Of a stretch of DNA of 64,000 bases, positions 14,172 to 53,079 are shown one piece after another. The DNA is from Myxococcota bacterium (GTDB lineage: Bacteria > Myxococcota_A > Polyangia > Fen-1088): positions 1,960 to 65,959 of the forward strand of contig JBKPRZ010000179.1 of assembly GCA_046734815.1 (NCBI GenBank), read 5' to 3'. The notes under the pieces are model-generated. The model was not told the DNA's origin and made no database searches. It saw nothing but the letters and a program-made list of their open reading frames with translations. Both the position numbers and the translations under genes were made by a program. Position 1 is the first letter of the stretch, and every line of letters begins with the position of its first letter.

Positions 14172-14297
14172 GGTCGGTCCAGCGCGCGAGCAGCGTAGCA
14201 CGACGCGCTGCCCGCGTCCGAGGTTCCTGGGCGCGATCGCCCGCGGAAGCGTGGGTGCGATTGGCGGCGCCCGCTGCCGGCGTGTTAGACGAGCCGC

Positions 14298-15437: not shown

Positions 15438-15440
15438 CGA

Positions 15441-16682: not shown

Positions 16683-16687
16683 GCGGG

Positions 16688-18403: not shown

Positions 18404-18409
18404 GTTCCC

Positions 18410-19573: not shown

Positions 19574-19655
19574 TCGGAGGAAGGCGCCAATCTAGCGCCG
19601 GAGCCGCCAAATTCGGCCTTCATTTTTTCATTTCAGCCCTTATCCTCAAGCTCCG

Positions 19656-20363: not shown

Positions 20364-20377
20364 AGGAATCGACAAGC

Positions 20378-20773
20378 GTGATCCGCCTGGTCTTGCTCAC
20401 CGGCCTGATCGGCATCGCCATCTTCGTCACCTTCGGGCGCGACAGCGCCGGGTTGCGGGCCAGCCGCAAGTTGCTGTTCCTGGCCATCACCTTCTCCGGT
20501 TGCGTCGCGGTCCTGTTCCCGGAGCTGGTTCAGGACATCGCCGACGTCCTGGGGGTGGGCCGCGGCACCGACCTGCTCCTGTACATCGTCACCATCATGG
20601 TGCTCAGCATGGCGGTCACGATGTTCGTCAGCAAGCAACACGCCGAGCGCCGCGAAGCCACCCTGGTGCAGTCGCTGGCCATCCTGCAGGCCCAGCTGGA
20701 CGAGCTCCGGGCCCAGCTCCCGCCCGCGGCCGGAGCTCAAGCTCCCGGCGTCGGGACCGGCCCGGTCCGCTGA
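20378..20773 (+). CDS. small membrane protein, DUF2304-like
   Basis: 131 aa with four predicted TM segments and a C-terminal amphipathic tail. GTG start 14 nt after the GT2 stop. This is the usual partner position of DUF2304 next to GT2 genes. Confidence 0.7.
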   Translation: MIRLVLLTGLIGIAIFVTFGRDSAGLRASRKLLFLAITFSGCVAVLFPELVQDIADVLGVGRGTDLLLYIVTIMVLSMAVTMFVSKQHAERREATLVQSLAILQAQLDELRAQLPPAAGAQAPGVGTGPVR

Positions 20774-22329
20774 GGGCGCCCCCACAGCAGCACCGAGGCG
20801 CTCGCGCCGCCGAACAGGAAGCCCAGGAGCAACACCACTCCCGCTGTCCGCCGGACGCCTCGCCAGTCCAGGAACCACCAGTCGATTCGGGCGCGGGCGT
20901 AGCTGGCCGCCACGTTGAGAGACAGCGTCGTGTAGCGGTGCCAGGGAGCGTCCGCCTCCGCCTGACGCCAGTCGTGTCGCTGCGGAACGTGGCGCAGGAG
21001 CCAGTAATGGCCTTCGATCGGCGAGAGGCCGGGCAACCAGTTGACCGGGTAAAAATCCTCGAAGCAGGGATCGCAGGCTCCCCCGCGATCTTTGCTGGCC
21101 GCGCCGGCTCGGTTCGGGATGCCCAGCCAGCGGGTGCGGGCTTCCTGGGAGATGCGAATGAAGTGGTCCCAGTAAAAGGCGTTGGCCACCACCTGTACGA
21201 ACAGGCCGCTGGCGAACACCGCGCCGGCGACCAGGAGGGCCGCGCGCCGGCGCACCTGGAGGAGGTGGTCGAAGGCGAGGACCGCCGGCAACAGGAGAAC
21301 CGGAACGATGAACAGGATGTAGCGAGGGCCCCAGCACCAGTCGCCGCTCCAGAACAGGAAGCGGGCGTTTATGAACACCACCGGGCCTGCGCTCAGCAGG
21401 AAGGCCCAGAGCCACTGCCGCTGCCGGTTGCGAACCAGGAAAGGGACCGCCACCAGGCTGGCCATCAACGGGGGGCTGTACAGAAGCAGGCTCTTGCCCG
21501 GGGACAGAAACAGACCGTAAAGGCCCCAGAAGGGGGTCTCGGCGAAGGTGCGCGCCGGTTTCTGCGAGATGGGCAGGGCGTAGCCGACGTCGAAGAAGGA
21601 GCCCGTGCGGACGTGGTTGTAGGCGAGCGTCATGATCACGCCCGGGAGCAAGCCGAGGACCGCCCAGGGCAGGAGCTTCAGCAGCCGACCGCCCCCACGC
21701 GAGCGGTAGATGCTGACCCCGACCAGCGCGGCCGCTCCGGGCAGCGCCAGGAGGTAGACCACCTTGGTGTTGATCAACATGCCGGCCCACAACCCCACCA
21801 GCAACGCGGCCGTCGGGGTGGCCTGGCGGTCCAGCCGCAGCAGCCACAGGAAGAATCCCAGGTAGGCGGCGGTCTGGGAGATCTCCGACCAGGGCGAACG
21901 GGCGTACACCCAGATCATGGTGCCGAAGGCCAGCATCAGCACGCCCAGGTTGGTGGCCAGCACCGAGGCGCCCAGGTCGCGGCAGAGCAGGGCGAACAGC
22001 AGGCATACCAGCGCTCCCACCGCGGCGGGGGCCAGGTGGCTGGCCAGCGCCTTCATCGGTTCGCTGTGCGCGGGCCAGTGGGCCCGCAGCTTTTTGTGGA
22101 GATAGGAGCCGGGCACGTGGATCAGCGAGGGCAGCAGCGGGTTGACGGCGTAATACTTGCCGTTGTGCGCGATCCCCGGCGGCGCCACATCGACCGAGCC
22201 CAGGTACACGATGGACTCGGCCACCTGATAGATGCGCCGGCCGTCGTTCCAGGGCAGCTCCCGGCTCTGGGAGGCCATGTAGGCCAGGAAGACGGTCAGG
22301 AACAGTCCGAGCTTTTGCCAGGAGGACAT
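20737..22329 (-). CDS. GT-C fold glycosyltransferase (ArnT/PMT-like, polyprenyl-phosphate-sugar dependent)
   Basis: 530 aa with more than 11 TM helices, a first periplasmic loop containing acidic residues (ELPWNDGRR) and a C-terminal periplasmic domain. Its 3' end overlaps the convergent DUF2304 gene by 37 nt. Confidence 0.8.
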   Translation of the reverse strand: MSSWQKLGLFLTVFLAYMASQSRELPWNDGRRIYQVAESIVYLGSVDVAPPGIAHNGKYYAVNPLLPSLIHVPGSYLHKKLRAHWPAHSEPMKALASHLAPAAVGALVCLLFALLCRDLGASVLATNLGVLMLAFGTMIWVYARSPWSEISQTAAYLGFFLWLLRLDRQATPTAALLVGLWAGMLINTKVVYLLALPGAAALVGVSIYRSRGGGRLLKLLPWAVLGLLPGVIMTLAYNHVRTGSFFDVGYALPISQKPARTFAETPFWGLYGLFLSPGKSLLLYSPPLMASLVAVPFLVRNRQRQWLWAFLLSAGPVVFINARFLFWSGDWCWGPRYILFIVPVLLLPAVLAFDHLLQVRRRAALLVAGAVFASGLFVQVVANAFYWDHFIRISQEARTRWLGIPNRAGAASKDRGGACDPCFEDFYPVNWLPGLSPIEGHYWLLRHVPQRHDWRQAEADAPWHRYTTLSLNVAASYARARIDWWFLDWRGVRRTAGVVLLLGFLFGGASASVLLWGRPQRTGPVPTPGA

Positions 22330-22409
22330 CGCGGACGGATCAGGTTCCGGGCGGCGAGCTGAAGTCGCGCATCTGCGAAGTGCCGGGTGCGCTCACGAAT
22401 TCGGCGGAT

Positions 22410-22438
22410 GCTAGCGGAAGCGCTGACTGGCCGCTAGC
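22410..22438. repeat. perfect 8-bp inverted repeat in the GT2/GT-C intergenic gap
   Basis: GCTAGCGG (22410-22417), a 13-nt loop, then CCGCTAGC (22431-22438). Lies inside the 139-nt gap between two same-strand genes. Could be an attenuator, terminator or protein-binding site. Confidence 0.35.
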
Positions 22439-22468
22439 CGCGGCTGGCGATTTTGGCCCCTGAACCTT

Positions 22469-23254
22469 TCACGGGCGTGACACCAGACTCAGCAGTCGGT
22501 AGAGGTTGAGGATGAGCAGGCGCTTGCCCAGGCGGCGCGCGCCCACCCAGGCGCCAGCCCGGTACCGGGCCGCGATGGCGCTGGCCTGATCCAGCTGGCG
22601 CTCGAAGCTGCCACCGCTCTTGCTGCTGCGGTACCAGCGAAAGCAGGCCAGCGGTTCCTCGAGGTAGACCGGCGGCCCCCGTCGCGCCAGACGCAAGAAC
22701 AGGTCGTAATCGAACGCCAGATCCAGCTCCGGATCCAGGTAGCCGATCTGATCGTGCACCGATCGCCGCCAGAAGGCGGTCATCTGGCTGATGTAGTTCT
22801 CGGTCAGCAGGTTCGCGAAGGAGTGGCGGCGCGCGCGAAAGTGCTTGTATCGGCTGATCCAGCTCCGGAGGGGCGCGCCTCGCTCGTCGACGATCTCGCA
22901 CCGGCCGTGGATCCACTCCGTGTTCGGGTTGCTGGTGAAGGCCTGCGCCACCCGGGCCAGAGCGCCGGGCAGCAGGAGATCGTCGCTGTTCAACCACGCC
23001 ACCACGTCCCCGGTGGCCGCCCGCAACCCCTTGTTGATGGCATCGATCTGACCGCGGTCTGGCTCGGACACCCAGCGCAGCCGGGGCCCGAAGCTTTTCA
23101 ACACCTCCAGGGTTCCGTCGCTGCTGCCTCCGTCGATCACCTTGTATTCGAGCTCGAAATCGCCGGTCTGGGCGAGCACGCTGTCGATGGTGCGGCCGAT
23201 GAAGCCTGCCTGGTTGAAGGAGGGGGTGACCAGGGAGATGCGAAGGCGCGCCAC
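22469..23254 (-). CDS. glycosyltransferase family 2
   Basis: SLVTPSFNQAGFIGRTIDSVLAQT, VIDGGSSDGT, WLNSDDLL. Start placed at GTG 23254 (VARLRISL). The track ORF extends to 23494 but would then overlap the divergent gene. Confidence 0.8.
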   Translation of the reverse strand: MARLRISLVTPSFNQAGFIGRTIDSVLAQTGDFELEYKVIDGGSSDGTLEVLKSFGPRLRWVSEPDRGQIDAINKGLRAATGDVVAWLNSDDLLLPGALARVAQAFTSNPNTEWIHGRCEIVDERGAPLRSWISRYKHFRARRHSFANLLTENYISQMTAFWRRSVHDQIGYLDPELDLAFDYDLFLRLARRGPPVYLEEPLACFRWYRSSKSGGSFERQLDQASAIAARYRAGAWVGARRLGKRLLILNLYRLLSLVSRP

Positions 23255-23348
23255 GGAGCGGTCGATGGTACGAAAATGACGACCGCGCCGCCACCACCGG
23301 CCGCCCGGTTTGACTGCCGTCCACCGGCCGGTCAAAGTGCCCGTCGCC

Positions 23349-24152
23349 ATGGTCCTGCACGGAGCGGTTCGAACGTCGGCGCGCGGCGTGCTGCGGCTGT
23401 GCACCGACGGGGAGTACCGCCGGGTCAGCGCGCTGTCGCTTCGTTTTGCTCTGCGGCCGCGCCGCAAGCCGGGCAAGGTGCGGCTGGGCGGCACGCCCTT
23501 TCGGTTCCCCGATGCGGCCTCGTTCCTGTCGGCGTATGAAGAGATCTTCGCCGACCGGATCTACGCTTTCGAGAGCGCCAGCCCGAACCCTCTGGTCCTG
23601 GACCTGGGGGCCAACGTGGGGCTGAGCGTCCTCTTCTTCAAGCGCCTCTACCCGAACGCACGGGTGGTGGCGCTGGAGCCGGACCCGGAGATCTTTCGCT
23701 ATCTCGAGACCAACGTGGCTGCCTTCGGGCTGGGCGACGTCACGCTCAAGAATGCCGCCGTCTGGAAGGAGACGACCGAGATCGCCTTCGCCGCCGACGG
23801 CGCGGACGGCGGGCGGGTGGGGGAAGGGGGGGCCTTGCGGGTGCCGGCCATCGGTATCGCCGAGCTGATGGAGGGCAGGCCGGTGGACTTCCTGAAGATG
23901 GACATCGAAGGCGCGGAGGCGGACGTGTTGCCCGCGTGCGCGCCGATGCTGCGGGAGGTGCGCAACGTGTTCGTGGAGTACCATTCCCCCGCCGGCAGGC
24001 CGCAGCGGCTGGACGGGATCATCGACACCCTGGTGGGGGCGGGGTTTCGCATTGCCCTGCAGACAGTCAAGAGCCCGCGGTCACCCTTCGTGCCCCGTCC
24101 CTCGGAAGAGGCCTTCGACCTGCAGCTCAACATCTCCGGGTACCGACCGTGA
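23349..24152 (+). CDS. FkbM-family SAM-dependent methyltransferase
   Basis: LDLGANVGLSVLFFKRLYP and FLKMDIEGAEADVL. ATG 23349 is preferred; the ORF opens at TTG 23310. Confidence 0.85.
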   Translation: MVLHGAVRTSARGVLRLCTDGEYRRVSALSLRFALRPRRKPGKVRLGGTPFRFPDAASFLSAYEEIFADRIYAFESASPNPLVLDLGANVGLSVLFFKRLYPNARVVALEPDPEIFRYLETNVAAFGLGDVTLKNAAVWKETTEIAFAADGADGGRVGEGGALRVPAIGIAELMEGRPVDFLKMDIEGAEADVLPACAPMLREVRNVFVEYHSPAGRPQRLDGIIDTLVGAGFRIALQTVKSPRSPFVPRPSEEAFDLQLNISGYRP

Positions 24153-24847
24153 GCTTGCGCGAGCGACTCTTGCCGTTCGCCCAGCAAGCCTTCCGTCAGC
24201 TGGGATCCGTGCGCTTCGAAGACGACCAGCGCAACGAGCCGCGCAGCCGGCTGTTCGGCACCGAACGGGGGACGGCCATCGATCGCCGTTACATCGAGCG
24301 GTTCCTGGACGAGCGTCGATCCCGGATCCGCGGCCGCGTGCTGGAGGTGGGCGAGAGCCGATACGCCCCGCGGCTGGGCGGCCCGGGCGCGCGCTACGAG
24401 GTCCTGCACGTGGAGCCGGGACACCCGGGCGCCTCGGTGGTCGGCGACCTGACCCGCCCGGAGACCTTGCCGGCCGACGGGTTCGACTGCTTCATCTGCA
24501 CACAGACCTTCAACTTCATCTACGACCTGACCGCCGCCGTCCGCGGCGCCGCCCACCTGCTGCGCCCGGCTGGGGTCTTGCTCGCGACCGTCGCGGGGAT
24601 CTCCCAGATCAGCCGCTTCGACATGGACCGCTGGGGCGATTACTGGCGTTTCACCAGCGCCAGCTGCCAGCGCCTGTTTGCCAGCGCGTTTGCCCGGGTC
24701 GAGGTGGTCACCTTCGGCAACGTCCTGGCTGCGAAGGCGCTGCTGGATGGGCTGGCGGTCGAAGATCTGCCCCGCCCCGAGCTTCTCGATCGGGTGGACC
24801 CCGACTATCAGGTCGTGCTCGGGATCGAGGCCACCAAGGCAGCCTGA
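24149..24847 (+). CDS. class I SAM-dependent methyltransferase (probable)
   Basis: GTG 24149 overlaps the FkbM stop (GTGA). Rossmann-like core RVLEVGESRY...DCFICTQTFNFIYD...LLRPAGVLLATV. Part of track ORF 23936..24847. Confidence 0.7.
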   Translation: MSLRERLLPFAQQAFRQLGSVRFEDDQRNEPRSRLFGTERGTAIDRRYIERFLDERRSRIRGRVLEVGESRYAPRLGGPGARYEVLHVEPGHPGASVVGDLTRPETLPADGFDCFICTQTFNFIYDLTAAVRGAAHLLRPAGVLLATVAGISQISRFDMDRWGDYWRFTSASCQRLFASAFARVEVVTFGNVLAAKALLDGLAVEDLPRPELLDRVDPDYQVVLGIEATKAA

Positions 24848-24857
24848 GCGCGCGCGG

Positions 24858-25607
24858 TCACGTCGCCCGACCGCCGCCGTTCAGCCGCGCGGCCAGGCCT
24901 CGGTTGTCCAGGAAGGTGGCCCGCGTCCGGACCTCCGCCAGCAGGCGGAACATGTCTTCCAGCTGCGGCCACAGCCCCCGCTCGTCGATCTCCCAGGAGT
25001 GGCCCCAGATGTGAAACACGCCCCCTCGCTCGAGGGCCAGGGTCAGGAGCCCGCGCGCGAGGTCGATGGGCTTCACCGGCGCGGCCAGCGGATAGCCGTA
25101 ATCGCGGAGCGCCTTCAGGTGCCCGCGGCGCAGGCAATGCAGGACATGCACGACGCGGGGGTGGGGGTAGACCTGCACGCTGGGCGCGATCCGGAATCGA
25201 TCCGTGGGCCGGTCCAGGCACAGCCAATCGGCCGTGCGGGCGCCCCGGTAGCCGGCAGCGGCGACCTCCACCACGTGCGCCGGGGTGAACTTGCCGCCGG
25301 GATAACAGAAGGAGGCGATCTCGTCCCCGGTCACGTCCGCGAGCCAGCTCTTGCAGTCGCGGATCTCCGCGCGGGCTCGCTCGCGATCCAGCGAGGTGAG
25401 AGGCAGGTGGCTCAGGGTGTGCCCACCGATCTCGAAGCGCTTCGCCAGCTGGGCGACGGCGCGCGCCTCGAGGACCGGACGCTCGGGGTTGGCGCGGGGA
25501 ACGTAGAAGCAGCCGGGGAGCTGGTACTTTTCCAGAAGGTCGGCCAGCCGCAGATCCTGGGGGGCGCCGTCGTCCCAGCTGGTGGTCACCAGCAGCTCAG
25601 CAGGCAC
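24858..25607 (-). CDS. polysaccharide deacetylase (CE4/NodB-like)
   Basis: 249 aa with TSWDDG, GGHTLSH and CYPGG motifs. Confidence 0.85.
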   Translation of the reverse strand: MPAELLVTTSWDDGAPQDLRLADLLEKYQLPGCFYVPRANPERPVLEARAVAQLAKRFEIGGHTLSHLPLTSLDRERARAEIRDCKSWLADVTGDEIASFCYPGGKFTPAHVVEVAAAGYRGARTADWLCLDRPTDRFRIAPSVQVYPHPRVVHVLHCLRRGHLKALRDYGYPLAAPVKPIDLARGLLTLALERGGVFHIWGHSWEIDERGLWPQLEDMFRLLAEVRTRATFLDNRGLAARLNGGGRAT

Positions 25608-26757
25608 GGCCGATCTCCCGGTACAGCTCCTCCAGCTGATCGTGAACCCGGCTCAGCTGGTACCTCTGGCTGGCCAGCCCCAGCGCGGCCTGCCGCATGG
25701 CCGGCCAGCGCTCGGGCTGCGAGAGCAAGTCTTTCAAGCCGTGGCCGAGGGCGTCGGCCGAGGGTTCGACGATGAGCCCCGCGCCCACCTTGGCGACGTC
25801 GTCCAGGTTGCAGGCCCGCGAGAGCAGGCAAGGGACGCCGAAGGCGAGCGCTTCCAGCGCCGTCACGGGGAGCCCCTCCGCGAACGAGGGCAACGTGAAG
25901 ATGGAGGCAGCTCGATAGGCATCTTCGAGCTCATCGCCGGTGAGCAGGCCGGTGAGCAGGACGTTCGGTCCCCGCCAGCCCGGGGTCAGGTCCACCCGGT
26001 TCTCCGCCGGTCCGGCCAGAACGAACACCGGACCATCCGGCGCGAACCGCGCGGCCACGTCGAGGAGGAGATCGACCCCCTTGCCGGCGCGCAGGCGGCC
26101 CACGTAGAGCACGATGGGCCGGCCGTCCACGCCGAAGCGGGCGCGAAAACGCGCGCCGTCGCCGGGGCGCAGCGGGGTGGCCACGCCGTTGGGGATGAGC
26201 CGCAGCTTGTCGCGAGGCACACCCAGCGCCAGACAGCTCTCCGCCTCGGCGTCGGTCATCACCTGGATGGCCTGGCAACGCGCCAGGGTCCTTCGACCGA
26301 GCAGAGACATCAGGGCGCGCTTGACCGCTGCCCGACCCCGGGCGGCCGCGAGGCTGAGCCCACCGTGCGCCGTGAGCAGCACGGGAAGCGAGCGGGCCGC
26401 CGCGCGCTCGACTGCCCGGTAGGTGAGCCAGGTGAAAAACTCGTGCACGTGCACGACGTCGGCGCCGTTCAGGACACGGTCCGCGGCGGAGGCGAAGCCC
26501 AGGGGGGCAAAGAGGTTCTGTCTCACCAGACGCTGGCTGAGGTTTCGCACCCGGACGACCTCCACCGATCCCACACGCTCGCGCAGCACCGGCACCCGCC
26601 CCCGACGTGAGGCGGCGTCGGTGGTGAGCACGGTGACCTCATGCCCGCGGCGGGCCATGTCCTCGGCCAGCTGGCTGCACACCGTCACCGGCCCGCCGAA
26701 CGAAAGGGCAGGCACGTAATAGGGGATGACGTAGGCGATTCGCAAGGGCCCGGTCAA
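25597..26757 (-). CDS. glycosyltransferase family 4
   Basis: LRIAYVIPYY N-terminus and FTLPSFAEGLPVTALEALAFGVPCLLS. Start is TTG 26757 (TTGA overlap with the upstream stop) or TTG 26745. The track ORF extends spuriously to 27102. Confidence 0.85.
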   Translation of the reverse strand: MTGPLRIAYVIPYYVPALSFGGPVTVCSQLAEDMARRGHEVTVLTTDAASRRGRVPVLRERVGSVEVVRVRNLSQRLVRQNLFAPLGFASAADRVLNGADVVHVHEFFTWLTYRAVERAAARSLPVLLTAHGGLSLAAARGRAAVKRALMSLLGRRTLARCQAIQVMTDAEAESCLALGVPRDKLRLIPNGVATPLRPGDGARFRARFGVDGRPIVLYVGRLRAGKGVDLLLDVAARFAPDGPVFVLAGPAENRVDLTPGWRGPNVLLTGLLTGDELEDAYRAASIFTLPSFAEGLPVTALEALAFGVPCLLSRACNLDDVAKVGAGLIVEPSADALGHGLKDLLSQPERWPAMRQAALGLASQRYQLSRVHDQLEELYREIGRAC

Positions 26758-27599
26758 GTATCGCCCGCGCGGCCCGCAACGGTGGACGGTCCCGCTCCCG
26801 CCCCCGCTCCCGTGGCGGCCGGCGGCTGGCAAAGGAGGGCGCAATGGTAGGTGAGGAGACTGGTGGCCAGACGCGGGGTCGAAGCGAGCAAGGTCCGCTT
26901 GACCACATACTTGGCGGTTCCGAGCTTGAACCGGCTCCCCGCCCGCTGCTCGGCGGCATCGTGAATGGCGCGCGAGGGCGTGTACAGCCGTTGCTTCAAC
27001 ACGGTGAGCCCGCAGGTTTGCAGGAGCAACCGGATGGTCCGAGGCGAGAAGAAGTTGATGTGCCCCACTCCGTCCGGCCGATAGCTCTCTCCCATCATCC
27101 ACTCGGCCGAGAGGTTGTCCTCGGTGGGCACCTCCACCAGGACGTGGTTGCCCAGGCGGCTCGCCTCGTAGAGCAGGAGCCGAGGATTCTCCACGTGCTC
27201 GATGACGTGGCTGAGGATGACCAGGTCGAACTGCCGCTGACGGTAGGGGAGCCGGTAGCCATCAAAAAGTGAACACTCCACCAGGTGCGGTATCTCTCGC
27301 TTGCGAATGATCTCCACAGCGGAGGACGAGATCTCCGCGGCATAGAGGCGCTGGCCGAACGCCAGCTGGCTGAGACGAAGGAGGACCGAGCCCTCGCCCG
27401 CCCCGATCTCCAGGACAGTGGCCGGGGCGAGGTCACGGGCGAGGTCGACCACACTTTGCGCCTTGTCGAGCGCGCCCAGCCACCGCCAGGCCGCCTCCGA
27501 CCCGTCGTAGGCGTGGTCGTAGAGAGCCTGGAGGTCCTTTCGCACCTGGGGCTGGCCCATGTCGTCCGCATCAATACCCCGAAGGTTTCTCTGGTTCAA
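26754..27599 (-). CDS. class I SAM-dependent methyltransferase
   Basis: 281 aa. Motif I VLEIGAGEGSVLL. DLVILSHVIEHVENP. Confidence 0.85.
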   Translation of the reverse strand: MNQRNLRGIDADDMGQPQVRKDLQALYDHAYDGSEAAWRWLGALDKAQSVVDLARDLAPATVLEIGAGEGSVLLRLSQLAFGQRLYAAEISSSAVEIIRKREIPHLVECSLFDGYRLPYRQRQFDLVILSHVIEHVENPRLLLYEASRLGNHVLVEVPTEDNLSAEWMMGESYRPDGVGHINFFSPRTIRLLLQTCGLTVLKQRLYTPSRAIHDAAEQRAGSRFKLGTAKYVVKRTLLASTPRLATSLLTYHCALLCQPPAATGAGAGAGPSTVAGRAGDT

Positions 27600-27614
27600 A
27601 TCCGGCGGCCCGCG

Positions 27615-27643
27615 TTGACGCCCGGGATTGGCTTGTCTACGTT
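27615..27643 (+). promoter_or_regulatory. candidate sigma-70-type promoter
   Basis: TTGACG (27615-27620), a 17-nt spacer, then TACGTT (27638-27643). About 80 nt upstream of GTG 27722, in a divergent intergenic region. Confidence 0.4.
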
Positions 27644-27721
27644 ACGTTCATGTTGGGCTACGCAGCGGCGGCCTTCGTCAGGCGGCGGTGCTGGTGAGCT
27701 GGTGACGAGGAACGCCAGCCC

Positions 27722-28486
27722 GTGACCCGGTCCTCCCTGCACGACACGCTGGTGCGGCTGGCGCCCCGTTCGGCGGCCCTCCGGCTGGCGGTCTACCTGC
27801 GGGAGATGGCCCGCCTGGGGCGGTCGGCCGGGCCCGGTCCGCTGGGCGGCTGGATGCGCGAGTTCCCGCGCTGGCAACGGACCATCCGGTCAGGGGTGAG
27901 CCCGCTGCAGGCGCAGACCCCCTGGATCACCTACGGCGCCATCCGCTTCGTCGAGGAGTTGCTGCGGCCGGAGATGCGGGTGTTCGAATACGGCGCCGGG
28001 GGATCGACCCTGTTCTTCGCCGCGCGCGTCCGCGAGGGGGTCTCGGTGGAGCACGACCCGGCCTGGGCGCAGGCCGTCCGCGCCGCGCTGGCCGAGCGGG
28101 GGCGCACGAACTGGAAGGTCCAGCTTGTCGAACCGGTGGCCGACGACAACGGCGCCGACCCGGCCGATCCCGATGGCTACGCGTCCTCGGATCCGCCCTC
28201 GGCCGGGCGGTCGTTCCGGGCCTATGCCGCCGCCATCGAGGCCTTCCCCCCGGCCAGCTTCGATCTGGTGGTCATCGATGGACGCGCGCGCCCCTCCTGC
28301 TTCCGGCACGCCTGGCCGCGGGTCACGCCGGGCGGGTGGCTGCTGCTCGACAACGCCGAACGCGCCACCTACGGCCGCGTGCACGTCGAGCTCGAGCGCA
28401 TGGGCTGGAGCAAGCGGTGCTTCCCCGGCCCCACGCCCTACGCGTTCAACTTCTCCGAGACCTGCCTCTGGCAGCGCCCCTCCTGA
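27722..28486 (+). CDS. class I SAM-dependent methyltransferase-like protein (TylF/Methyltransf_24-like)
   Basis: 254 aa. VFEYGAGGSTLFFA (motif I), DLVVIDG, GGWLLLDN. Confidence 0.7.
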   Translation: MTRSSLHDTLVRLAPRSAALRLAVYLREMARLGRSAGPGPLGGWMREFPRWQRTIRSGVSPLQAQTPWITYGAIRFVEELLRPEMRVFEYGAGGSTLFFAARVREGVSVEHDPAWAQAVRAALAERGRTNWKVQLVEPVADDNGADPADPDGYASSDPPSAGRSFRAYAAAIEAFPPASFDLVVIDGRARPSCFRHAWPRVTPGGWLLLDNAERATYGRVHVELERMGWSKRCFPGPTPYAFNFSETCLWQRPS

Positions 28487-28661
28487 GGGCTGTCGGCGCA
28501 CGAGACACCTGCAGGCCCGGCCAATCCCGCGCCGTAGGGGGCGGTCCTGCGTCGCGATCGGCGGAGAGTTCAGCAGCGGCAGCAGCGATGCTGTATCATG
28601 CGGCGAGGCGTTGCATCGCGGGGCTGCAGAGCTCCGCACAGGACCTCGGGAGGTCGAGAGC

Positions 28662-29435
28662 ATGAAAGTCGTGATTCTGGCCGGCGGCATGGGTACCCGT
28701 CTCAGCGAGGAGACAGCGGTCAAGCCCAAGCCGATGGTCGAGATCGGCGGCAAGCCGATCCTGTGGCACATCATGAAGATCTTCTCCGCCCACGGCCTGC
28801 ACGAGTTCGTGATCTGCCTGGGGTACAAGGGCTACGTCATCAAGGAATACTTCGCGAACTACTTCCTCCACACCTCGGACGTGACCATCAATCTGGCCAC
28901 CAACGGTCTGGAGGTTCACAACAGCAAGGCCGAGCCCTGGAAGATCACCCTTGTCGACACCGGGGACCAGTCCATGACCGGCGGGCGGCTCAAGCGGGTG
29001 GCGCCTTACCTCCACCCCAACGAGCGGTTCTGCATGACCTACGGCGACGGGCTGGCGGACATCAACGTCACCGACCTGATCCGCTTTGCCAAGAAACGTG
29101 GGACCCTGGCCACCTTGACCGCCACCCAGCCGGGAGGCCGGTTCGGCGCGCTGGAGCTGTCGGACGAGACGGTGCGCGCGTTCCGGGAGAAGCCGGCCGG
29201 GGACGGCGGCTGGATCAACGGCGGGTTCTTCGTGCTCCACCCCGAGGTGCTCTCGTACATCGAGGGCGACGGCACGGTGTGGGAGCGCGAACCGATGGAG
29301 CGCCTGGCGAAGGAGGGGCAGCTCTCGGCTTACTTGCACCGGGGTTTCTGGCACCCGCTCGATACCCTGCGCGACAAGCGGGCGCTGGACGAGCAGTGGA
29401 GCGGGGGCGCGGCGCCCTGGAGAATCTGGGACTGA
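28662..29435 (+). CDS. rfbF: glucose-1-phosphate cytidylyltransferase
   Basis: Internal ATG of track ORF 28125..29435, preceded by GGGAGG. MKVVILAGGMGTRLSEET, KPKPMVEIGGKPILWHIM, 257 aa. Confidence 0.95.
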   Translation: MKVVILAGGMGTRLSEETAVKPKPMVEIGGKPILWHIMKIFSAHGLHEFVICLGYKGYVIKEYFANYFLHTSDVTINLATNGLEVHNSKAEPWKITLVDTGDQSMTGGRLKRVAPYLHPNERFCMTYGDGLADINVTDLIRFAKKRGTLATLTATQPGGRFGALELSDETVRAFREKPAGDGGWINGGFFVLHPEVLSYIEGDGTVWEREPMERLAKEGQLSAYLHRGFWHPLDTLRDKRALDEQWSGGAAPWRIWD

Positions 29436-30502
29436 TGGACCGCCGCTTCTGGCGGGGCAGGCGGGTGCTCCTGACCGGACACACCGGCTTCAAGGGAAGC
29501 TGGCTGTCCCTCTGGTTGCAGGAGGCGGGCGCGGAAGTGCTCGGTTACGCCCTCGATCCACCCACCGAGCCGAGCTTGTTTTCCCTGGCCGACGTGGCGG
29601 CGGGAATGAAACACGTGCTGGGCGACGTGCGGGACGCCGAGAAGGTGCGCCACCTGTTCAAGGACTTCCAGCCCGAGATGGTCTTTCACCTGGCGGCGCA
29701 AGCTCTGGTGCGAGACTCCTACGAGCGGCCGGTCGAGACCTTCGCCACCAACGTGATGGGCACCGCGCACGTGCTGGAGGCCGTCCGGGCCACGCCGTCG
29801 GTGAAGGTGGCGGTGATGGTCACCAGCGACAAGTGTTACGAGAACCGCGAATGGGTATGGGGCTACCGGGAGCAGGACCCCATGGGCGGTCACGATCCCT
29901 ATTCCGCCAGCAAGGGCTGCGCCGAGCTGGTGGTCGCGTCGTATCGACGGTCCTTCTTCGCCGATGGCTCGGGGCGAGCGGCGGCGCTGGCCAGCGTGCG
30001 GGCCGGCAACGTGATCGGCGGCGGTGACTGGGCCCGCGACCGGTTGCTGCCGGACGCCGTGCGCGCCTTTGCCAGGGGACAATCGCTGGTGGTGCGGAAC
30101 CCGGCCGCGGTACGACCCTGGCAACACGTGCTCGAGCCGCTGGATGGTTACCTGCGGCTGGCCGAGCAGCTGCACGCGGACGGACCGCGGTTCGAGGGCG
30201 CCTGGAACTTCGGGCCCGACGACACCGATTCGCGGAGCGTGGAGGAGGTCATCGGGCTGGTGACCCGGCTGTGGGGTGAGGGGGTCGCCTGGGAACGGGA
30301 TGGAAGCGTGCAGCCGCACGAAGCCCGGTCCCTGCGTCTGGATTGTTCTAAGGCCAGGCTGCTGCTGGGCTGGAAGCCGCGGCTGGACCTGGAGGCGGCG
30401 CTGGGCTGGGTGGTCGCCTGGTACAAGGACTGGCAGCACGGAGCCAACATCCGGGCGCTCAGCTTGCGCGACATCAACCGGTACGAGGCGCTGCGATCAT
30501 GA
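29435..30502 (+). CDS. rfbG: CDP-glucose 4,6-dehydratase
   Basis: Its ATG shares one base with the rfbF stop (TGATG). VLLTGHTGFKGSWL (NAD-binding), YSASKGCAEL (YxxxK), 355 aa. Confidence 0.95.
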   Translation: MDRRFWRGRRVLLTGHTGFKGSWLSLWLQEAGAEVLGYALDPPTEPSLFSLADVAAGMKHVLGDVRDAEKVRHLFKDFQPEMVFHLAAQALVRDSYERPVETFATNVMGTAHVLEAVRATPSVKVAVMVTSDKCYENREWVWGYREQDPMGGHDPYSASKGCAELVVASYRRSFFADGSGRAAALASVRAGNVIGGGDWARDRLLPDAVRAFARGQSLVVRNPAAVRPWQHVLEPLDGYLRLAEQLHADGPRFEGAWNFGPDDTDSRSVEEVIGLVTRLWGEGVAWERDGSVQPHEARSLRLDCSKARLLLGWKPRLDLEAALGWVVAWYKDWQHGANIRALSLRDINRYEALRS

Positions 30503-31746
30503 CTCAATCGAAGGTGCACTGCCGCCTGTGCGAGGCGGAGCTGTCGCGGGTATTCGTCGACCTCGGGATGTCGCCGCTGTCGAACGCCTACCTGCCGTCC
30601 GACCGGCTGCACGAGATGGAGCCTTTTTACCCGCTGCGGGTGTACGTGTGCGAGCGTTGCCTGCTGGTCCAGCTGCCCGAGGTGCAGAAGGCGGCCAGCA
30701 TCTTCGGCGACGAGTACCTCTACTTTTCCTCGTACTCCGATTCCTGGCTGCGCCACTGCGAGCGCTACGCGGCCATGGCCTGCGAGCGCTTCCAGTTGTC
30801 GCGCGACAGCCTGGTGGTCGAGCTGGCCAGCAACGACGGGTACCTCCTCCAATATTTCCTGGCCCGCGGCATTCCCGTGCTGGGGGTCGAGCCGTCGAGC
30901 AACGTGGCCAGGGTGGCGGTCGAGCAGAAAGGGGTGCCCACCCTGGTGCGCTTCTTCGGGGTGGAGACCGCCCGCCAGCTGCGCGCCGAGGGCAAGACCG
31001 CCGACCTGATCGTGGGCAACAACGTGCTGGCGCACGTGCCGGACCTTCACGATTTCGTGGGCGGCATGAAGGAGCTGCTGGCCCCGGGCGGCACCATCAC
31101 GGTCGAGTTCCCGCACCTGGTCCGGCTGATCGAGCAGAATCAGTTCGACACCATCTACCACGAACATTTCAGCTACTTCTCCTTCCTCACCGCCCGCAAG
31201 GCCTTCGAGGCCCATGGGATGCTGGTCTTCGACGTGGAGGAATTGCCCACCCACGGAGGTTCGTTGCGGCTGTACGTGCGCCACGCGGAGGGCGATCGTC
31301 GGCCGGTCACCCCCGCGGTGGGCGAGCTGGACGCCAGGGAACGCGCCGCCGGCTACGCCGAGCTGCCCGCCCACCTGGCCTTCCGCACCCGCGTCGAACG
31401 CACCAAGCGCGACCTCCTCGCCTTCCTGATCGAGGCCCGGAGCGCGGGCAAGCGGGTCTGCGGGTACGGCGCTCCCGCCAAGGGTAACACCCTGCTGAAC
31501 TACTGCGGCGTGCGCGAGGACTTCGTCGACTTCACGGTCGATCGCAGCCCGCACAAGCAAGGGCGTCACCTGCCGGGAACCCACATCCCGATCTTCGCGC
31601 CCGAGCGCCTGGATCAGGCGCGCCCGGACTACGTCCTGATCCTGCCATGGAACCTGAAGGACGAGATCATCACCCAGTTGTCGGCGGTGCGCGGCTGGCG
31701 TGGCCGCTTCGTGGTTCCCATCCCGCAGCTCGAGATCATCGAATGA
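30499..31746 (+). CDS. NDP-hexose C-methyltransferase (TylCIII-like architecture: Zn knuckle + SAM fold + C-methyltransferase C-terminal domain)
   Basis: 415 aa. HCRLCEAEL...VCERCLLVQ, then VVELASNDGYLL, then YHEHFSYFS. ATGA overlap with rfbG. Confidence 0.85.
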   Translation: MTQSKVHCRLCEAELSRVFVDLGMSPLSNAYLPSDRLHEMEPFYPLRVYVCERCLLVQLPEVQKAASIFGDEYLYFSSYSDSWLRHCERYAAMACERFQLSRDSLVVELASNDGYLLQYFLARGIPVLGVEPSSNVARVAVEQKGVPTLVRFFGVETARQLRAEGKTADLIVGNNVLAHVPDLHDFVGGMKELLAPGGTITVEFPHLVRLIEQNQFDTIYHEHFSYFSFLTARKAFEAHGMLVFDVEELPTHGGSLRLYVRHAEGDRRPVTPAVGELDARERAAGYAELPAHLAFRTRVERTKRDLLAFLIEARSAGKRVCGYGAPAKGNTLLNYCGVREDFVDFTVDRSPHKQGRHLPGTHIPIFAPERLDQARPDYVLILPWNLKDEIITQLSAVRGWRGRFVVPIPQLEIIE

Positions 31747-32276
31747 AGGTCACGCCCGCGGGCCTCGACGGGGCGTTCGCGATCGATCTCGAGCCACACA
31801 CGGACGAGCGCGGTTTCTTCGCCCGGTCGTTCTGCGCCGACGAGCTGGCCCGGCACGGGCTGAACGGCCGGGTCAGCCAGATGAACGTGTCGTTCAACCG
31901 CAGCAAGGGCACCCTGCGCGGCATGCACTACCAGCGCGATCCGCACGGCGAGGAGAAGATCGTGCGCTGCACGCGCGGTAGCATCGTGGACGTGATCGTG
32001 GACATTCGGCCCCGCTCGTCCACCCGCGGCCGCTGGGTGGCGCTGGAGCTCACGGCGGACAACCGCCGTGCGCTGTACATTCCCCTGGGCTTTGCCCATG
32101 GCTTCCAGACCTTGACCGACGACGCCGAGGTGCTGTACCTGATGAGCAACTCGTATGTGCCCGGGTCGGCCGCCGGGTATCGATACGACGATCCCGTCTT
32201 CGGGATCCGCTGGCCCGAGCGCCCCACCGTCATCTCGGCCAAGGACCTGGATTACCCGCCGTTCGAGGCCGCATGA
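31743..32276 (+). CDS. NDP-4-keto-6-deoxyhexose 3,5-epimerase (RmlC-type cupin)
   Basis: 177 aa. RGFFARSF, LRGMHYQ, RGSIVDVIVDIR, YIPLGFAHGFQTL. ATGA overlap upstream. Confidence 0.9.
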   Translation: MKVTPAGLDGAFAIDLEPHTDERGFFARSFCADELARHGLNGRVSQMNVSFNRSKGTLRGMHYQRDPHGEEKIVRCTRGSIVDVIVDIRPRSSTRGRWVALELTADNRRALYIPLGFAHGFQTLTDDAEVLYLMSNSYVPGSAAGYRYDDPVFGIRWPERPTVISAKDLDYPPFEAA

Positions 32277-33214
32277 AACGCGCGCTGGTCACCGGTGCGG
32301 GCGGCTTCGTGGGCCGCTGGACCTTGCAAGCGCTGATCGAGCGCGGCTACGAGGTGCACGCCTGGGACCTGCGCGAAGCTCCGCCCGGGCAAGAGCGGAT
32401 CACCTGGCACCGGGGGGACCTGCTCGCCCCGGGCGAGATCGGGCGCGTCCTCCGCTCAGTGCGACCCACCCACCTCCTGCACATGGCGTGGTACGCGGCG
32501 CACGGGAAGTTCTGGCACGCCGAGCAGAATGTGCCCTTCTTGCAGGCCAGTCTCGAGTTGCTGCTGACCTTCCAGGAGATCGCCGGGCAGCGGATGGTCG
32601 GGGTGGGGACCTGCGCGGAATACGACTGGGCCCACGGGTACTGCGCCGAAGGCGTGACCCCGTTGCGCCCGGCAACCCTGTATGGCGTGGCGAAAGATGC
32701 GCTCCGGCGCGTCCTCGAGAGCTTTGCTCCCGGACGCGGCATCAGCTGGGCCTGGGCCCGGCTGTTCCTGCTGTACGGACCGAACGAGGACCGCCGCCGC
32801 CTGGTGGCCTCGGCCATCACGTCGCTGCTGCAGGGGCAGGAAGCGCCCTTTTCCCATGGGCAGCAGGTCCGCGACTTCATGCACGTCCGGGACGTGGCGG
32901 GCGCGCTGGTGGCCCTGCTGGACTCGGCGGTGGAGGGCGCGGTCAACGTCGCCTCGGGCACCCCCACCCGCATCCGCGACCTGGTGGAAGAGATCGCCGG
33001 GATCCTGCAGACCCCCCAGCTGGTTCGCTTCGGGGCGTTGCCCGCGCCCCCCGACGATCCCCCGCTGCTGCTGGCCAGCACGCGCCGGCTGGTCGAGGAG
33101 GTGCGCTTCGTCCCGCGCTTCGATCTGCACGCGGGTCTGAAGGACACGATCGAGTGGTGGCGCGGATCCCCGGGTCTGAGCGTTCGAGCTGATGAGCGTC
33201 CTTCCGACCGGTAG
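32273..33214 (+). CDS. NAD(P)-dependent epimerase/dehydratase-family reductase (probable 4-ketoreductase)
   Basis: 313 aa. ALVTGAGGFVGRW, YGVAKDAL (YxxxK). ATGA overlap upstream. Confidence 0.85.
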   Translation: MKRALVTGAGGFVGRWTLQALIERGYEVHAWDLREAPPGQERITWHRGDLLAPGEIGRVLRSVRPTHLLHMAWYAAHGKFWHAEQNVPFLQASLELLLTFQEIAGQRMVGVGTCAEYDWAHGYCAEGVTPLRPATLYGVAKDALRRVLESFAPGRGISWAWARLFLLYGPNEDRRRLVASAITSLLQGQEAPFSHGQQVRDFMHVRDVAGALVALLDSAVEGAVNVASGTPTRIRDLVEEIAGILQTPQLVRFGALPAPPDDPPLLLASTRRLVEEVRFVPRFDLHAGLKDTIEWWRGSPGLSVRADERPSDR

Positions 33215-34148: not shown

Positions 34149-34151
34149 CCG

Positions 34152-34951: not shown

Positions 34952-34952
<1 letters not shown>
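34152..34952 (-). CDS. birA: biotin--[acetyl-CoA-carboxylase] ligase, class I (no HTH)
   Basis: 266 aa with the GGRGRMGRSWHSPPGENLYVSLLL biotin-binding loop. The start shares one base with the nadC stop. Confidence 0.9.
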
Positions 34953-51405: not shown

Positions 51406-51411
51406 CGGCCC

Positions 51412-53028: not shown

Positions 53029-53079
53029 GCCCGCAGCCTAATACCGCCGGGCCTCCGACGCCACGGTGGCGTCGATGGC

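Follow-up and report, generated by a model that had tools for sequence, protein, structure and literature searches.

Li et al., writing in the Journal of Biological Chemistry in 2017 (292:7636), are said to have described a four-gene operon of Bacillus cereus that yields CDP-cereose and CDP-cillose, which are reportedly 3-C-methyl sugars of the D series (gulo/allo). Okuda, Suzuki and Suzuki reportedly described a further branched sugar nucleotide, CDP-vinelose, from Azotobacter vinelandii in 1967-68. This compound is CDP-6-deoxy-3-C-methyl-2-O-methyl-L-talose. On the routes to dTDP-L-mycarose (TylC3-TylK-TylC2) and dTDP-L-epivancosamine (EvaC-EvaD-EvaE), C-3 methylation is followed by RmlC-type 5-epimerisation and then by 4-ketoreduction.

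A 2020 census counts seven characterised CDP sugars derived from glucose-1-phosphate, namely CDP-6-deoxygulose, CDP-L-ascarylose, CDP-abequose, CDP-paratose, CDP-cereose, CDP-cillose and CDP-tyvelose (PMC7725333). In A. vinelandii the rfbF, rfbG and rfbC genes are clustered, according to the account of Hausman et al. (1998) given in PMC3769361, and our literature search found no gene-to-sugar link for vinelose. A related cassette in Synechocystis PCC 6803, slr0983-slr0984-slr0985-slr1610, comprises rfbF-rfbG-rfbC plus a gene for a putative C-3 methyltransferase (PMC3769361). The RmlC-like gene of that organism is dispensable for rhamnose synthesis, and the pathway has been termed an 'alternative sugar pathway' (PMC12285223).

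Here we analysed a 64,000-nucleotide stretch of DNA (the window) carrying an operon whose most likely product is a 6-deoxy sugar, CDP-activated and C-methyl-branched, destined for a polysaccharide of the cell surface. The operon and its surroundings comprise the following features.

13365..28486, strand and frame assigned by GC3: glycan-assembly cluster, context outside the sugar pathway (Pfam and NCBIfam scans)
28487..28661, + strand: leader, 175-nt intergenic, with a Shine-Dalgarno sequence (GGGAGG) 8 nt 5' of the rfbF ATG
28662..29435, + strand: rfbF/ddhA, glucose-1-phosphate cytidylyltransferase, 257 aa (TIGR02623 equivalog; predicted product CDP-D-glucose)
29435..30502, + strand: rfbG, gene for a CDP-glucose 4,6-dehydratase (TIGR02622 equivalog; predicted product CDP-4-keto-6-deoxy-D-glucose)
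30499..31746, + strand: SAM-dependent NDP-4-keto-hexose C-methyltransferase, 415 aa, TylC3/TcaB9-type (Methyltransf_13/_23/_14)
31743..32276, + strand: RmlC-type cupin epimerase, 177 aa (PF00908, dTDP_sugar_isom, 3.5e-60; TIGR01221)
32273..33214, + strand: extended-SDR NAD(P)H-dependent 4-ketoreductase, 313 aa (PF01370, 2.4e-37)
33192-34148, + strand: flippase-like membrane protein, 318 aa, LPG_synthase_TM family (PF03706, 9.3e-35)
34152-34952, convergent to the flippase-like gene and directly after it: birA-like gene

Inspection of the sequence confirmed that the five plus-strand genes at 28662-33214 form a real operon with consecutive overlaps. The rfbG ATG and the rfbF stop codon have one base in common (TGATG, 29433-29437), and the remaining junctions are ATGA overlaps at 30499-30502, 31743-31746 and 32273-32276, all as described in an earlier, sequence-only reading of this DNA. 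Every translation is open and full length, GC3 frame analysis backs the called frames on the + strand, and translational coupling extends across all five genes. The leader is likely to be the promoter region of the operon; a scan of it for the sigma-70 consensus gave no match. The sequence-only reading ended the unit at 33214, and its five genes stand, but the unit probably reaches 34148, with the flippase-like gene, which shares 23 nt with the end of the reductase gene, as its putative last member. The product of this sixth gene matches the TIGR00374 flippase-like domain weakly, and the gene is not kept beside the cassette in other genomes (one weak match in 87 loci).

The first two enzymes are assigned with curated models. 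RfbF scores 443.7 bits against TIGR02623 (cut-off 300) and matches PDB 1tzf over its full length (1.7e-115), and RfbG scores 512 bits against TIGR02622 (cut-off 278) and matches PDB 1rkx (1.2e-144) and 1wvg (9.3e-141), in agreement with the types first proposed. On the basis of this homology, RfbF would convert CTP and glucose-1-phosphate to CDP-D-glucose, and RfbG would convert the latter to CDP-4-keto-6-deoxy-D-glucose. An rfbF-rfbG-methyltransferase-SDR operon on a B. cereus plasmid has the same gene order, and its proteins are 59, 48, 52 and 39% identical (the last over 298 aa) to those of the window; this locus is a plasmid homologue of the same architecture, not the characterised ATCC 14579 operon.

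Pfam scans took in about 56 GC3-supported ORFs of the window (the interval at about 58200-59900, without a qualifying ORF, was left out) and found among them neither E1 and E3 (DdhC/DdhD) nor any E3-type FAD_binding_6/NAD_binding_1 reductase, as the sequence-only reading had noted for the window. The genes for E1 and E3 could sit elsewhere in the genome. The single true DegT gene among the scanned ORFs, at 14298-15437, was rejected as an E1 gene: its product matches E1 (3bb8) at only 5.9e-27, is nearest to C3-aminotransferases (DesV 2oga, 1.5e-82; QdtB; WbpE), and retains the PLP lysine (sffpaKnlgc) already recognised. The accompanying claim that characterised CDP-glucose routes lead to 3,6-dideoxyhexoses and need E1/E3 was too narrow, in that these enzymes play no part in the synthesis of three of the seven census sugars (CDP-6-deoxygulose, CDP-cereose and CDP-cillose).

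The 415-aa protein matches Methyltransf_13 (1.8e-22) and Methyltransf_14 (4.4e-64), the two profiles suggested at the outset for checking its identity, as well as Methyltransf_23. Among solved proteins it matches MtmC (4rv9, 2e-88), KijD1 (5t64, 2.6e-73) and TcaB9 (3ndi, 2e-66), and alignment to solved homologues pairs C8/C11/C51/C54 with the Zn ligands and Y220-H-E222-H223 with the Y-x-E-H motif. The segments HCRLCEAEL, VCERCLLVQ and YHEHFSYFS are all present, so that the proposed sugar C-methyltransferase with a CxxC...CxxC knuckle and a SAM fold is well founded. Furthermore, natural single-ORF fusions join homologues 51-52% identical to the window enzyme either to a CDP-glucose 4,6-dehydratase (TIGR02622, 364 bits) or to RmlC (TIGR01221, 171 bits).

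Identity of the methyltransferase alone does not fix its substrate, because enzymes about 60% identical also occur in cassettes where the nucleotidyltransferase is another paralogue and the SDR is not RfbG. The generalisation that such C-methyltransferases act on dTDP sugars fails for the enzyme of the B. cereus CDP-cereose/cillose operon, and the window protein is 52% identical to the B. cereus-type enzyme versus 35-39% to the dTDP-type MtmC, KijD1 and TcaB9. From this 52% identity and the conserved Y-x-E-H and Zn-Cys4 elements we infer C-3 methylation, and with considerable confidence we take the target to be C-3 of a CDP-4-keto sugar. The enzyme would deprotonate C-3 beside the 4-keto group and add the methyl group of SAM, leaving C-3 quaternary.

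The cupin scores 160.4 bits against TIGR01221 (rmlC), only just above the cut-off of 155.75, and matches RmlC (7pvi, 1.3e-40), NovW (2c0z, 1.5e-29), 5buv (6.3e-25) and EvaD (1ofn, 4.1e-22). In structure-homologue alignments four positions are kept: His (LRGMHYQ), Lys (EEKIVR), Tyr (VLY) and Asp (YDDP). TylK and EvaD act after the C3-methyltransferases TylC3 and EvaC, and by analogy the enzyme is predicted to 5-epimerise the CDP-4-keto sugar once C-3 carries its methyl group; since the quaternary C-3 would no longer be open to the cupin, it would epimerise C-5 to give an L-lyxo 4-ketosugar. The SDR has its best PDB match in 2pk3, a GDP-6-deoxy-D-lyxo-4-hexulose reductase (3.1e-17), and carries GxxGxxG and Y137-xxx-K141. 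Both family assignments agree with those of the sequence-only reading. We infer that the SDR catalyses the last step, reducing C-4 to yield CDP-6-deoxy-3-C-methyl-L-mannose or -L-talose, the sequence predicting neither the site or sites of epimerisation nor C-4 stereochemistry.

Taken together, the enzyme identities, the coupling, the homologous operon, the fusions, the recurrence of the cassette in other lineages, the rfbF-rfbG-rfbC arrangements of A. vinelandii and Synechocystis and the lack of E1/E3 in the window bear out the proposed product class, and the operon very probably makes a CDP-linked C-methyl-6-deoxyhexose without E1/E3. The position of the epimerase between methyltransferase and reductase leads us to predict an L-series product formed by 5-epimerisation, a prediction drawn by analogy that we moderately favour. 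We consider it probable that the operon is a self-contained route from glucose-1-phosphate to a CDP-3-C-methyl-6-deoxyhexose (L series), supplying a sugar for the surface polysaccharide of the neighbouring glycosyltransferases. The glycan-assembly cluster upstream includes UppP/BacA, the DegT C3-aminotransferase, a Wzx-like flippase, two GT4 and two GT2 enzymes (one GT2 is PpgS-like, and after it come DUF2304 and a putative GT of 530 aa), and a polysaccharide deacetylase. It also has four further methyltransferases (FkbM, Methyltransf_11, _23 and _24), one of which could O-methylate the sugar before or after transfer; these four are not kept with the cassette in other genomes.

The collinear five-gene cassette is also present in Polyangiaceae, Nitrospinota, Caulobacteraceae, Thermoleophilaceae and Solirubrobacteraceae genomes and on a metagenome contig; it occurs in at least five other lineages from four phyla. 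Of the 80 loci with the closest methyltransferases, 60 have an RmlC-like gene within 7 kb. The epimerase might instead act on unmethylated CDP-4-keto-6-deoxyglucose to make a second, plain CDP-6-deoxyhexose, or 3-epimerise before methylation, and the main sugar might be of the D series, resembling cereose or cillose. We regard this as unlikely. WbcA, the protein behind the 5buv match, is a known 3-epimerase of the cupin type that serves CDP-6-deoxy-D-gulose synthesis, and the Bacillus-type operon functions without an epimerase. CDP-6-deoxygulose is itself a characterised CDP sugar (PMC7725333), and deletion of Synechocystis slr0985 caused no visible change in the sugar composition of released polysaccharide (RPS) (PMC12285223). 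In contrast, the epimerase gene of the window sits between the methyltransferase and reductase genes with translational coupling to both, the methyltransferase-epimerase-reductase order is preserved across phyla, and RmlC-methyltransferase fusion proteins occur. Moreover, RmlC-type enzymes that follow C3-methyltransferases in the mycarose and epivancosamine routes are 5-epimerases.

Less probable still is the order by which NovW, the C-5 methyltransferase NovU and NovS act in novobiocin biosynthesis, where the cupin would come first (as a 3- or 3,5-epimerase of CDP-4-keto-6-deoxyglucose), followed by C-5 methylation and C-4 reduction, to give a CDP-5-C-methyl (gem-dimethyl) 6-deoxyhexose. The epimerase does count NovW among its structural homologues, and C-3 and C-5 methylation are not told apart by sequence. 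However, among methyltransferase homologues linked to a characterised pathway the B. cereus-type enzyme is the closest, and its products are 3-C-methyl sugars, the solved homologues are all 3-C-methyltransferases, and the gene order fits C3-methylation, 5-epimerisation and reduction. Finally, some sources label methyltransferase homologues generically (e.g. 'ubiquinone methylase'), but a sugar nucleotide not derived from CDP-glucose, or a methylation target other than a sugar carbon, is hardly credible given two CDP enzymes that lie far over their equivalog cut-offs and match CDP enzymes of solved structure over almost their whole length, a complete three-domain C-methyltransferase architecture with its catalytic motif, and a UbiG score of just 20 bits where the cut-off is 103.

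The predicted C-3 methylation, 5-epimerisation and reduction can be set beside several known systems. The first two enzymes are shared with the 3,6-dideoxyhexose pathways (ddh/asc/rfb) of Salmonella and Yersinia as RfbF/DdhA and RfbG/DdhB. Those pathways proceed from the 4-keto intermediate to C-3 deoxygenation by E1 (DdhC/RfbH) and E3 (DdhD/RfbI), both absent from the window, whereas the route proposed here would branch to C-methylation. The late steps follow the chemical logic of mycarose and epivancosamine synthesis, with a Zn-ribbon/SAM/Methyltransf_14 enzyme and then an RmlC-type cupin, but those are 2,6-dideoxy or 3-amino antibiotic sugars on a dTDP carrier rather than the predicted CDP. 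The Synechocystis operon has the same four enzyme types and adjoins polysaccharide export genes (PMC3769361); there the epimerase precedes the methyltransferase and no adjacent reductase is reported, whereas in the window the epimerase follows the methyltransferase and the reductase comes next.

CDP-vinelose, a CDP-linked 3-C-methyl 6-deoxy L-series hexose, belongs to the very class predicted here, and its early description answers the sequence-only reading, which was not aware of a biochemical account of such a nucleotide sugar. An L-talo product, if correct, would correspond to vinelose's unmethylated core, although the operon has no coupled, dedicated 2-O-methyltransferase gene and the four candidates lie only in the wider cluster. 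The cereose/cillose operon of B. cereus shares the cytidylyltransferase, the dehydratase, the TylC3-type C-methyltransferase and the SDR 4-reductase in the same order, so that four of the five genes largely have an orthologous cluster tied to known sugars. The version with an epimerase does not, and we found no literature report of its product. The B. cereus operon decorates spore glycoproteins, while the window operon lies in a polysaccharide cluster of a 70% G+C and probably Gram-negative host, judging from Myxococcota-like nearest homologues. Because C-methyl CDP sugars and the core enzymes are already known, the operon represents a widespread variation on a known pathway rather than new chemistry. 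What sets it apart from the B. cereus system is the epimerase gene placed between those for methyltransferase and reductase in a CDP C-methyl sugar operon.

The operon at 28662-33214 is a variant, with a predicted 5-epimerase, of known pathways that convert CDP-glucose into 3-C-methyl-6-deoxyhexoses. At the ~70% G+C of the window, raw ORF lists are full of spurious frames, and GC3 analysis was used to define a single coding frame in each place. This analysis gave five consecutive + strand genes, all with open translations, and the overlaps that the sequence-only reading had proposed between them are exact (TGATG at 29433-29437; ATGA at 30499-30502, 31743-31746 and 32273-32276). A Shine-Dalgarno sequence (GGGAGG) lies 8 nt upstream of the first ATG, which is separated from the preceding gene by a 175-nt gap. 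A sixth gene overlaps gene 5 by 23 nt and the gene after it is convergent; therefore, the transcription unit most likely extends from 28662 to 34148. Scans of 27400-34700, which are uninformative for such a high-GC organism, found nothing that resembles a promoter, and terminator-like sites were no more frequent than expected by chance. The genes of this unit are as follows:

28662-29435, + strand: gene 1 (rfbF), glucose-1-phosphate cytidylyltransferase; NCBIfam equivalog TIGR02623, 443.7 bits (cut-off 300); end-to-end match with Salmonella 1tzf, 1.7e-115
29435-30502, + strand: gene 2 (rfbG), encoding CDP-glucose 4,6-dehydratase; equivalog TIGR02622, 512 bits (cut-off 278); PDB 1rkx, 1.2e-144, and 1wvg, ~1e-140
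30499-31746, + strand: gene 3, sugar C-methyltransferase, 415 aa; Pfam PF08421, 1.8e-22; PF13489, 2.1e-17; PF08484, 4.4e-64
31743-32276, + strand: gene 4, RmlC-type cupin; PF00908, 3.5e-60; TIGR01221, 160.4 bits, barely over the cut-off of 155.75
32273-33214, + strand: gene 5, extended SDR; GxxGxxG and YxxxK motifs; best solved relative 2pk3, 3.1e-17
33192-34148, + strand: sixth gene, LPG_synthase_TM / flippase-like membrane protein, coupled to the reductase gene by the 23-nt overlap

These curated profiles and solved-structure matches uphold the gene identities that had been assigned by the sequence-only reading. A cytidylyltransferase and a CDP-glucose 4,6-dehydratase are encoded side by side, as in operons of the cereose/cillose type, and the top structural relative of gene 5 (2pk3) is a GDP-6-deoxy-D-lyxo-4-hexulose reductase, a sugar-nucleotide 4-ketoreductase. 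Gene 3 matches both the Methyltransf_13 (PF08421) and Methyltransf_14 (PF08484) profiles and has the full three-domain layout, with a Methyltransf_13 zinc ribbon, a class I SAM fold and a C-terminal Methyltransf_14 domain. Its solved relatives are NDP-hexose 3-C-methyltransferases without exception (MtmC 4rv9, 2e-88; KijD1 5t64, 2.6e-73; TcaB9 3ndi, 2e-66). Residues C8, C11, C51 and C54 align with cysteines of these three enzymes that we take to be zinc ligands, and Y220-H-E222-H223 aligns with y-d-e-h in TcaB9 and KijD1 and with y-h-e-h in MtmC, presumably the catalytic Tyr-x-Glu-His motif (Y222/E224/H225 of TcaB9). We infer that the gene 3 product probably methylates C-3 of a 4-keto sugar nucleotide. 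Some database names suggest a UbiG-type quinone methylase, a reading that we rejected on a score of 20 bits (cut-off 103).

Gene 4, aligned with 7pvi and 9j9q, conserves a His (LRGMHYQ), a Lys (EEKIVR), a Tyr (VLY) and an Asp (YDDP), which we take to be the catalytic set of RmlC-type cupins, and EvaD is among its structural matches. The CDP enzymes and the upstream C3-methyltransferase suggest that gene 4 encodes a CDP-sugar 5-epimerase.

The 3,6-dideoxyhexose (ddhABCD/asc) pathway has the enzymes E1 (DdhC/RfbH, a 3-dehydrase with PMP and [2Fe-2S]) and E3 (DdhD/RfbI, a reductase with flavin and [2Fe-2S]), whereas the window has neither among the ~56 GC3-supported ORFs that were passed through Pfam (~58200-59900 holds no qualifying ORF and was left out). 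The absence of both enzymes, as originally claimed, therefore holds for these ORFs. The single true DegT-family gene among them (14298-15437) was considered as a disguised E1 and ruled out. Its best structural relatives are the C3-aminotransferases DesV, QdtB and WbpE, it retains the Schiff-base lysine, the E1 structure 3bb8 is a distant match (5.9e-27), and its score on the RfbH model NF011936, 149.6 bits, falls short of the 423-bit cut-off. No E3-type flavodoxin-reductase/ferredoxin domain pair was found among the ~56 ORFs.

CDP-6-deoxygulose, CDP-cereose and CDP-cillose are formed without E1 and E3. All three are among the seven characterised CDP sugars derived from glucose-1-phosphate in a 2020 genomic census (PMC7725333 and its supplement), together with CDP-L-ascarylose, CDP-abequose, CDP-paratose and CDP-tyvelose, and so the generalisation that characterised CDP-glucose routes need E1 and E3 was too broad.

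Glycan-assembly genes lie upstream of the operon, and the genes beyond 34148 are housekeeping genes (birA-, nadC-, rsmD- and coaD-like). Thus, the operon is a sugar-precursor module that borders a surface-polysaccharide locus. The upstream features are:

13365-28486: glycan-assembly cluster with UppP/BacA, an aminotransferase, a Wzx-like flippase, two GT4, two GT2, a polysaccharide deacetylase and four methyltransferases; one of the two GT2 is PpgS-like and is followed by DUF2304 and a 530-aa putative glycosyltransferase
23310-24152: FkbM-type methyltransferase
~24152-24847: Methyltransf_11 gene
26754-27599, - strand: Methyltransf_23 gene
27722-28486: Methyltransf_24 gene, adjoining the operon

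All four extra SAM methyltransferase genes (23310-28486) lie upstream of the operon at a distance of at most 5.4 kb, which suggests that the glycan of this cluster is heavily methylated. The methyltransferase at 27722-28486 shows no similarity to PDB or to the O-methyltransferase domain of P0131, a fused homologue of gene 3. At 19656-22329, the gene for the PpgS-like GT2 (NF058614, 243 bits, under the cut-off of 370) is followed by that for the DUF2304 protein, and this pair is faced by the gene for the 530-aa, LA_3751/3752-like putative glycosyltransferase. This arrangement resembles the mycobacterial polyprenyl-phospho-sugar module Rv3631/Rv3632/Rv3779 and suggests that the glycan is decorated extracytoplasmically. 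The window also carries many sigma-54 activators and TPR proteins, which, with the Polyangiaceae methyltransferase described below, suggest that the DNA comes from a myxobacterium. Unrelated to the operon, 45302-58156 holds a run of large - strand genes with few or no family assignments, including those for a 1251-aa protein, matched only weakly by Pyr_redox_2, for TPR (790 aa) and Kelch-repeat proteins, and for a DAO oxidoreductase, an S41 peptidase and a Fer2_4/NAD_binding_8 protein.

Operons of this kind are widespread and already recognised at the annotation level. A word-indexed search with gene 3 returned at least 8,000 candidates at E<=1e-30, the best 120 sharing 63-74% identity, and an exhaustive search of 50%-identity representatives gave 4,859 clusters at E<=1e-30. 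Among species-representative genomes, 565 stretches matched gene 3, and the nearest methyltransferase (71% identity) belongs to a Polyangiaceae MAG; no entry of the protein collection is identical to gene 3. The best 80 of these 565 span more than 10 phyla, with sources that include Myxococcota, Acidobacteriota, Nitrospinota, Cyanobacteria, Planctomycetota, Verrucomicrobiota, Actinomycetota and Proteobacteria. An RmlC-like gene lies within 7 kb of the methyltransferase in 60 of these best 80 loci, RfbF (at least 50% identity) in 37 and RfbG (at least 45%) in 17. The complete five-gene cassette is present in five of the 80 (Polyangiaceae, Nitrospinota, Caulobacteraceae, Thermoleophilaceae and Solirubrobacteraceae) and on one metagenome contig. 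Four of the five keep the gene order of the window; in Solirubrobacteraceae, rfbG precedes rfbF.

Conservation of the flanking genes (methyltransferases, GT4, PpgS-like GT2, DegT gene and flippase-like gene) was assessed in 87 loci. The FkbM, Methyltransf_23, Methyltransf_24 and PpgS-like genes had no match in these loci. Matches of the other flanking genes were weak (23-34% identity, spanning most of the length) and confined to six of the 87 at most; the flippase-like gene 33192-34148 was weakly matched beside the cassette at one locus elsewhere (L067). Because the flanking genes are not conserved with it, the cassette of five genes behaves as a portable module. A dedicated O-methyltransferase was considered as a further cassette member and dropped, since the flanking methyltransferases are not conserved in the 87 loci.

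Furthermore, several methyltransferase homologues (P0130, P0134, P0131, P0139, P0245 and P0203; 41-53% identity) are fused to other enzymes. Single-ORF fusions, in ORFs as called, join homologues with 51-52% identity to gene 3 to a CDP-glucose 4,6-dehydratase (TIGR02622, 364 bits; 827 aa) and to RmlC (TIGR01221, 171 bits; 590 aa). A third, P0131 (53% identity, 704 aa), carries a rhamnosyl-O-methyltransferase-like domain, and the remaining partners are other SDRs (740 and 773 aa) and a DegT aminotransferase (797 aa). As Rosetta-stone evidence, the fusions are an argument that the dehydratase, methyltransferase and epimerase activities would share one substrate stream.

Two other gene arrangements were observed. 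A second cassette, whose methyltransferase is ~57-66% identical, consists of an SDR that is not RfbG, a DUF4910 protein, RmlC and the methyltransferase. It is found on a Mesorhizobium plasmid (L085, 5694-11707), in Geotalea (L001, 6922-11801) and in many Acidobacteriota (L005-L009 and others). The Mesorhizobium and Acidobacteriota versions include an RfbF paralogue (TIGR02623, 204 bits, under the cut-off of 300), which occurs in 26 of the best 80 of the 565 loci; additional genes encode a PIG-L deacetylase in Mesorhizobium and an acetyltransferase and an aminotransferase in Geotalea. A cyanobacterial variant, present in Nostoc paludosum (L063, 3142-11042) and ~15 other heterocystous loci, has the order RfbF (460 bits), DAO-family FAD oxidoreductase, non-RfbG SDR, methyltransferase, GT2, two unknown genes and RmlC; a dehydratase of the RfbG type is absent from the surrounding 7 kb.

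On equivalog-level homology, the first two enzymes of the operon would produce CDP-glucose and then CDP-4-keto-6-deoxy-D-glucose. Family membership, the catalytic motif and Bacillus precedent suggest that C-3 would then be methylated through attack of an enolate on SAM. With C-3 quaternary, proton exchange is possible at C-5 only, and therefore the RmlC-type enzyme is predicted to catalyse a 5-epimerisation that yields the L-lyxo 4-ketosugar. Analogous logic governs TylC3-TylK-TylC2 (L-mycarose) and EvaC-EvaD-EvaE (L-epivancosamine). Finally, 4-ketoreduction would give CDP-6-deoxy-3-C-methyl-L-mannose (3-C-methyl-L-rhamnose) or CDP-6-deoxy-3-C-methyl-L-talose (the vinelose core). We tentatively propose, at a little short of an even chance, that the epimerase-containing cassette is the missing genetic basis of vinelose-type sugars, with CDP-6-deoxy-3-C-methyl-L-talose or -L-mannose as its product.

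Translational coupling, conserved gene order and the fusions favour C-3 methylation followed by 5-epimerisation over three other explanations. The epimerase might act on the unmethylated intermediate, so that a D-series sugar or two products would result; the WbcA/CDP-6-deoxygulose route offers a precedent, and on balance we consider this outcome unlikely. A noviose-like order, wherein the epimerase acts first and methylation occurs afterwards at C-5, is quite improbable. That the annotation-level reading is itself wrong is very unlikely.

The operon reveals neither new chemistry nor a new enzyme family. If methylation followed by 5-epimerisation is the true course, however, the cassette would provide a gene-level route to CDP-carried L-series 3-C-methyl-6-deoxyhexoses and would link CDP-vinelose, a nucleotide sugar of the 1960s, to its genes. 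It would also offer a CDP-based C-methylation/5-epimerisation module for glycoengineering. 3-C-methylrhamnose is present in O-polysaccharides of Burkholderia andropogonis and Azorhizobium caulinodans, and in a 2023 review, sugars with a 3-C-methyl branch are termed ‘quite uncommon’. The cassette itself is common in many phyla, yet there are few reports of 3-C-methyl sugars in polysaccharides (those two species and Helicobacter pylori), which suggests that routine monosaccharide analysis overlooks such sugars. Should the vinelose-type reading be true, C-methyl-branched L-6-deoxyhexoses would be common in bacterial surface glycans.

A four-gene B. cereus operon reportedly makes CDP-cereose and CDP-cillose (Li et al. 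2017). Cereose and cillose are 3-C-methyl-6-deoxy-gulose and -allose, with the allo/gulo configuration at C-3. The four genes of such an operon encode cytidylyltransferase, CDP-glucose 4,6-dehydratase, SAM C-methyltransferase and 4-reductase. A B. cereus plasmid carries a homologous locus with exactly this architecture (rfbF-rfbG-methyltransferase-SDR), to which the operon in the window is 59% (RfbF), 48% (RfbG), 52% (methyltransferase, 408 aa) and 39% (SDR, 298 aa, E = 1.9e-82) identical. In both, a TylC3-family methyltransferase gene lies directly downstream of the dehydratase gene. In the window, an RmlC-type gene separates the methyltransferase and reductase genes, whereas the B. cereus-type locus, whose four-gene architecture goes with D-series gulo/allo products, has none. 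Gene 3 is clearly closer to this enzyme, which has a CDP context, than to MtmC (39%), KijD1 (37%) and TcaB9 (35%), all of the dTDP type. The Bacillus precedent speaks against the earlier claim that the characterised methyltransferases of this architecture act on dTDP-linked 4-keto sugars.

CDP-vinelose is CDP-6-deoxy-3-C-methyl-2-O-methyl-L-talose; its isolation from Azotobacter vinelandii dates from 1967-68. Together with CDP-cereose and CDP-cillose, it is a precedent for a CDP-linked C-methyl-6-deoxyhexose, of which the sequence-only reading had known no biochemical description; the product class predicted by that reading stands, on profiles and Bacillus homology, but its novelty does not. 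Our full-text literature search returned nothing on vinelose, nor on 3-C-methyl-6-deoxy sugars under that name. The window has the CDP enzymes, RmlC-type epimerase and C-methyltransferase that a CDP-vinelose route would call for. As candidates for the sugar 2-O-methyltransferase, its four extra methyltransferases are neither coupled to the operon nor conserved with the cassette, and the one next to the operon (27722-28486) has no informative match for this role. An rfbF-rfbG-rfbC cluster in A. vinelandii was described in 1997-98 (cited in PMC3769361).

On pSymB of S. meliloti, ddhA-ddhB is followed by a gene named ‘NDP-hexose 3-C-methyltransferase’. Synechocystis PCC 6803 has rfbF-rfbG-rfbC and a ‘putative C-3 methyltransferase’, slr1610, beside polysaccharide export genes (PMC3769361). 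We found no biochemical characterisation of the epimerase-containing version in the literature, and this version is the remaining novelty. A 2025 study reported that deletion of the RmlC-like slr0985 leaves rhamnose synthesis unimpaired, termed the rfbF branch ‘an alternative sugar pathway’ and took slr1610 to be a generic methyltransferase; the possibility that the rfbF-rfbG-rfbC-slr1610 operon serves a CDP C-methyl sugar was not raised by its authors (PMC12285223). If our model is true, this operon of a model cyanobacterium would be explained, and the slr0985 result would gain a testable explanation.
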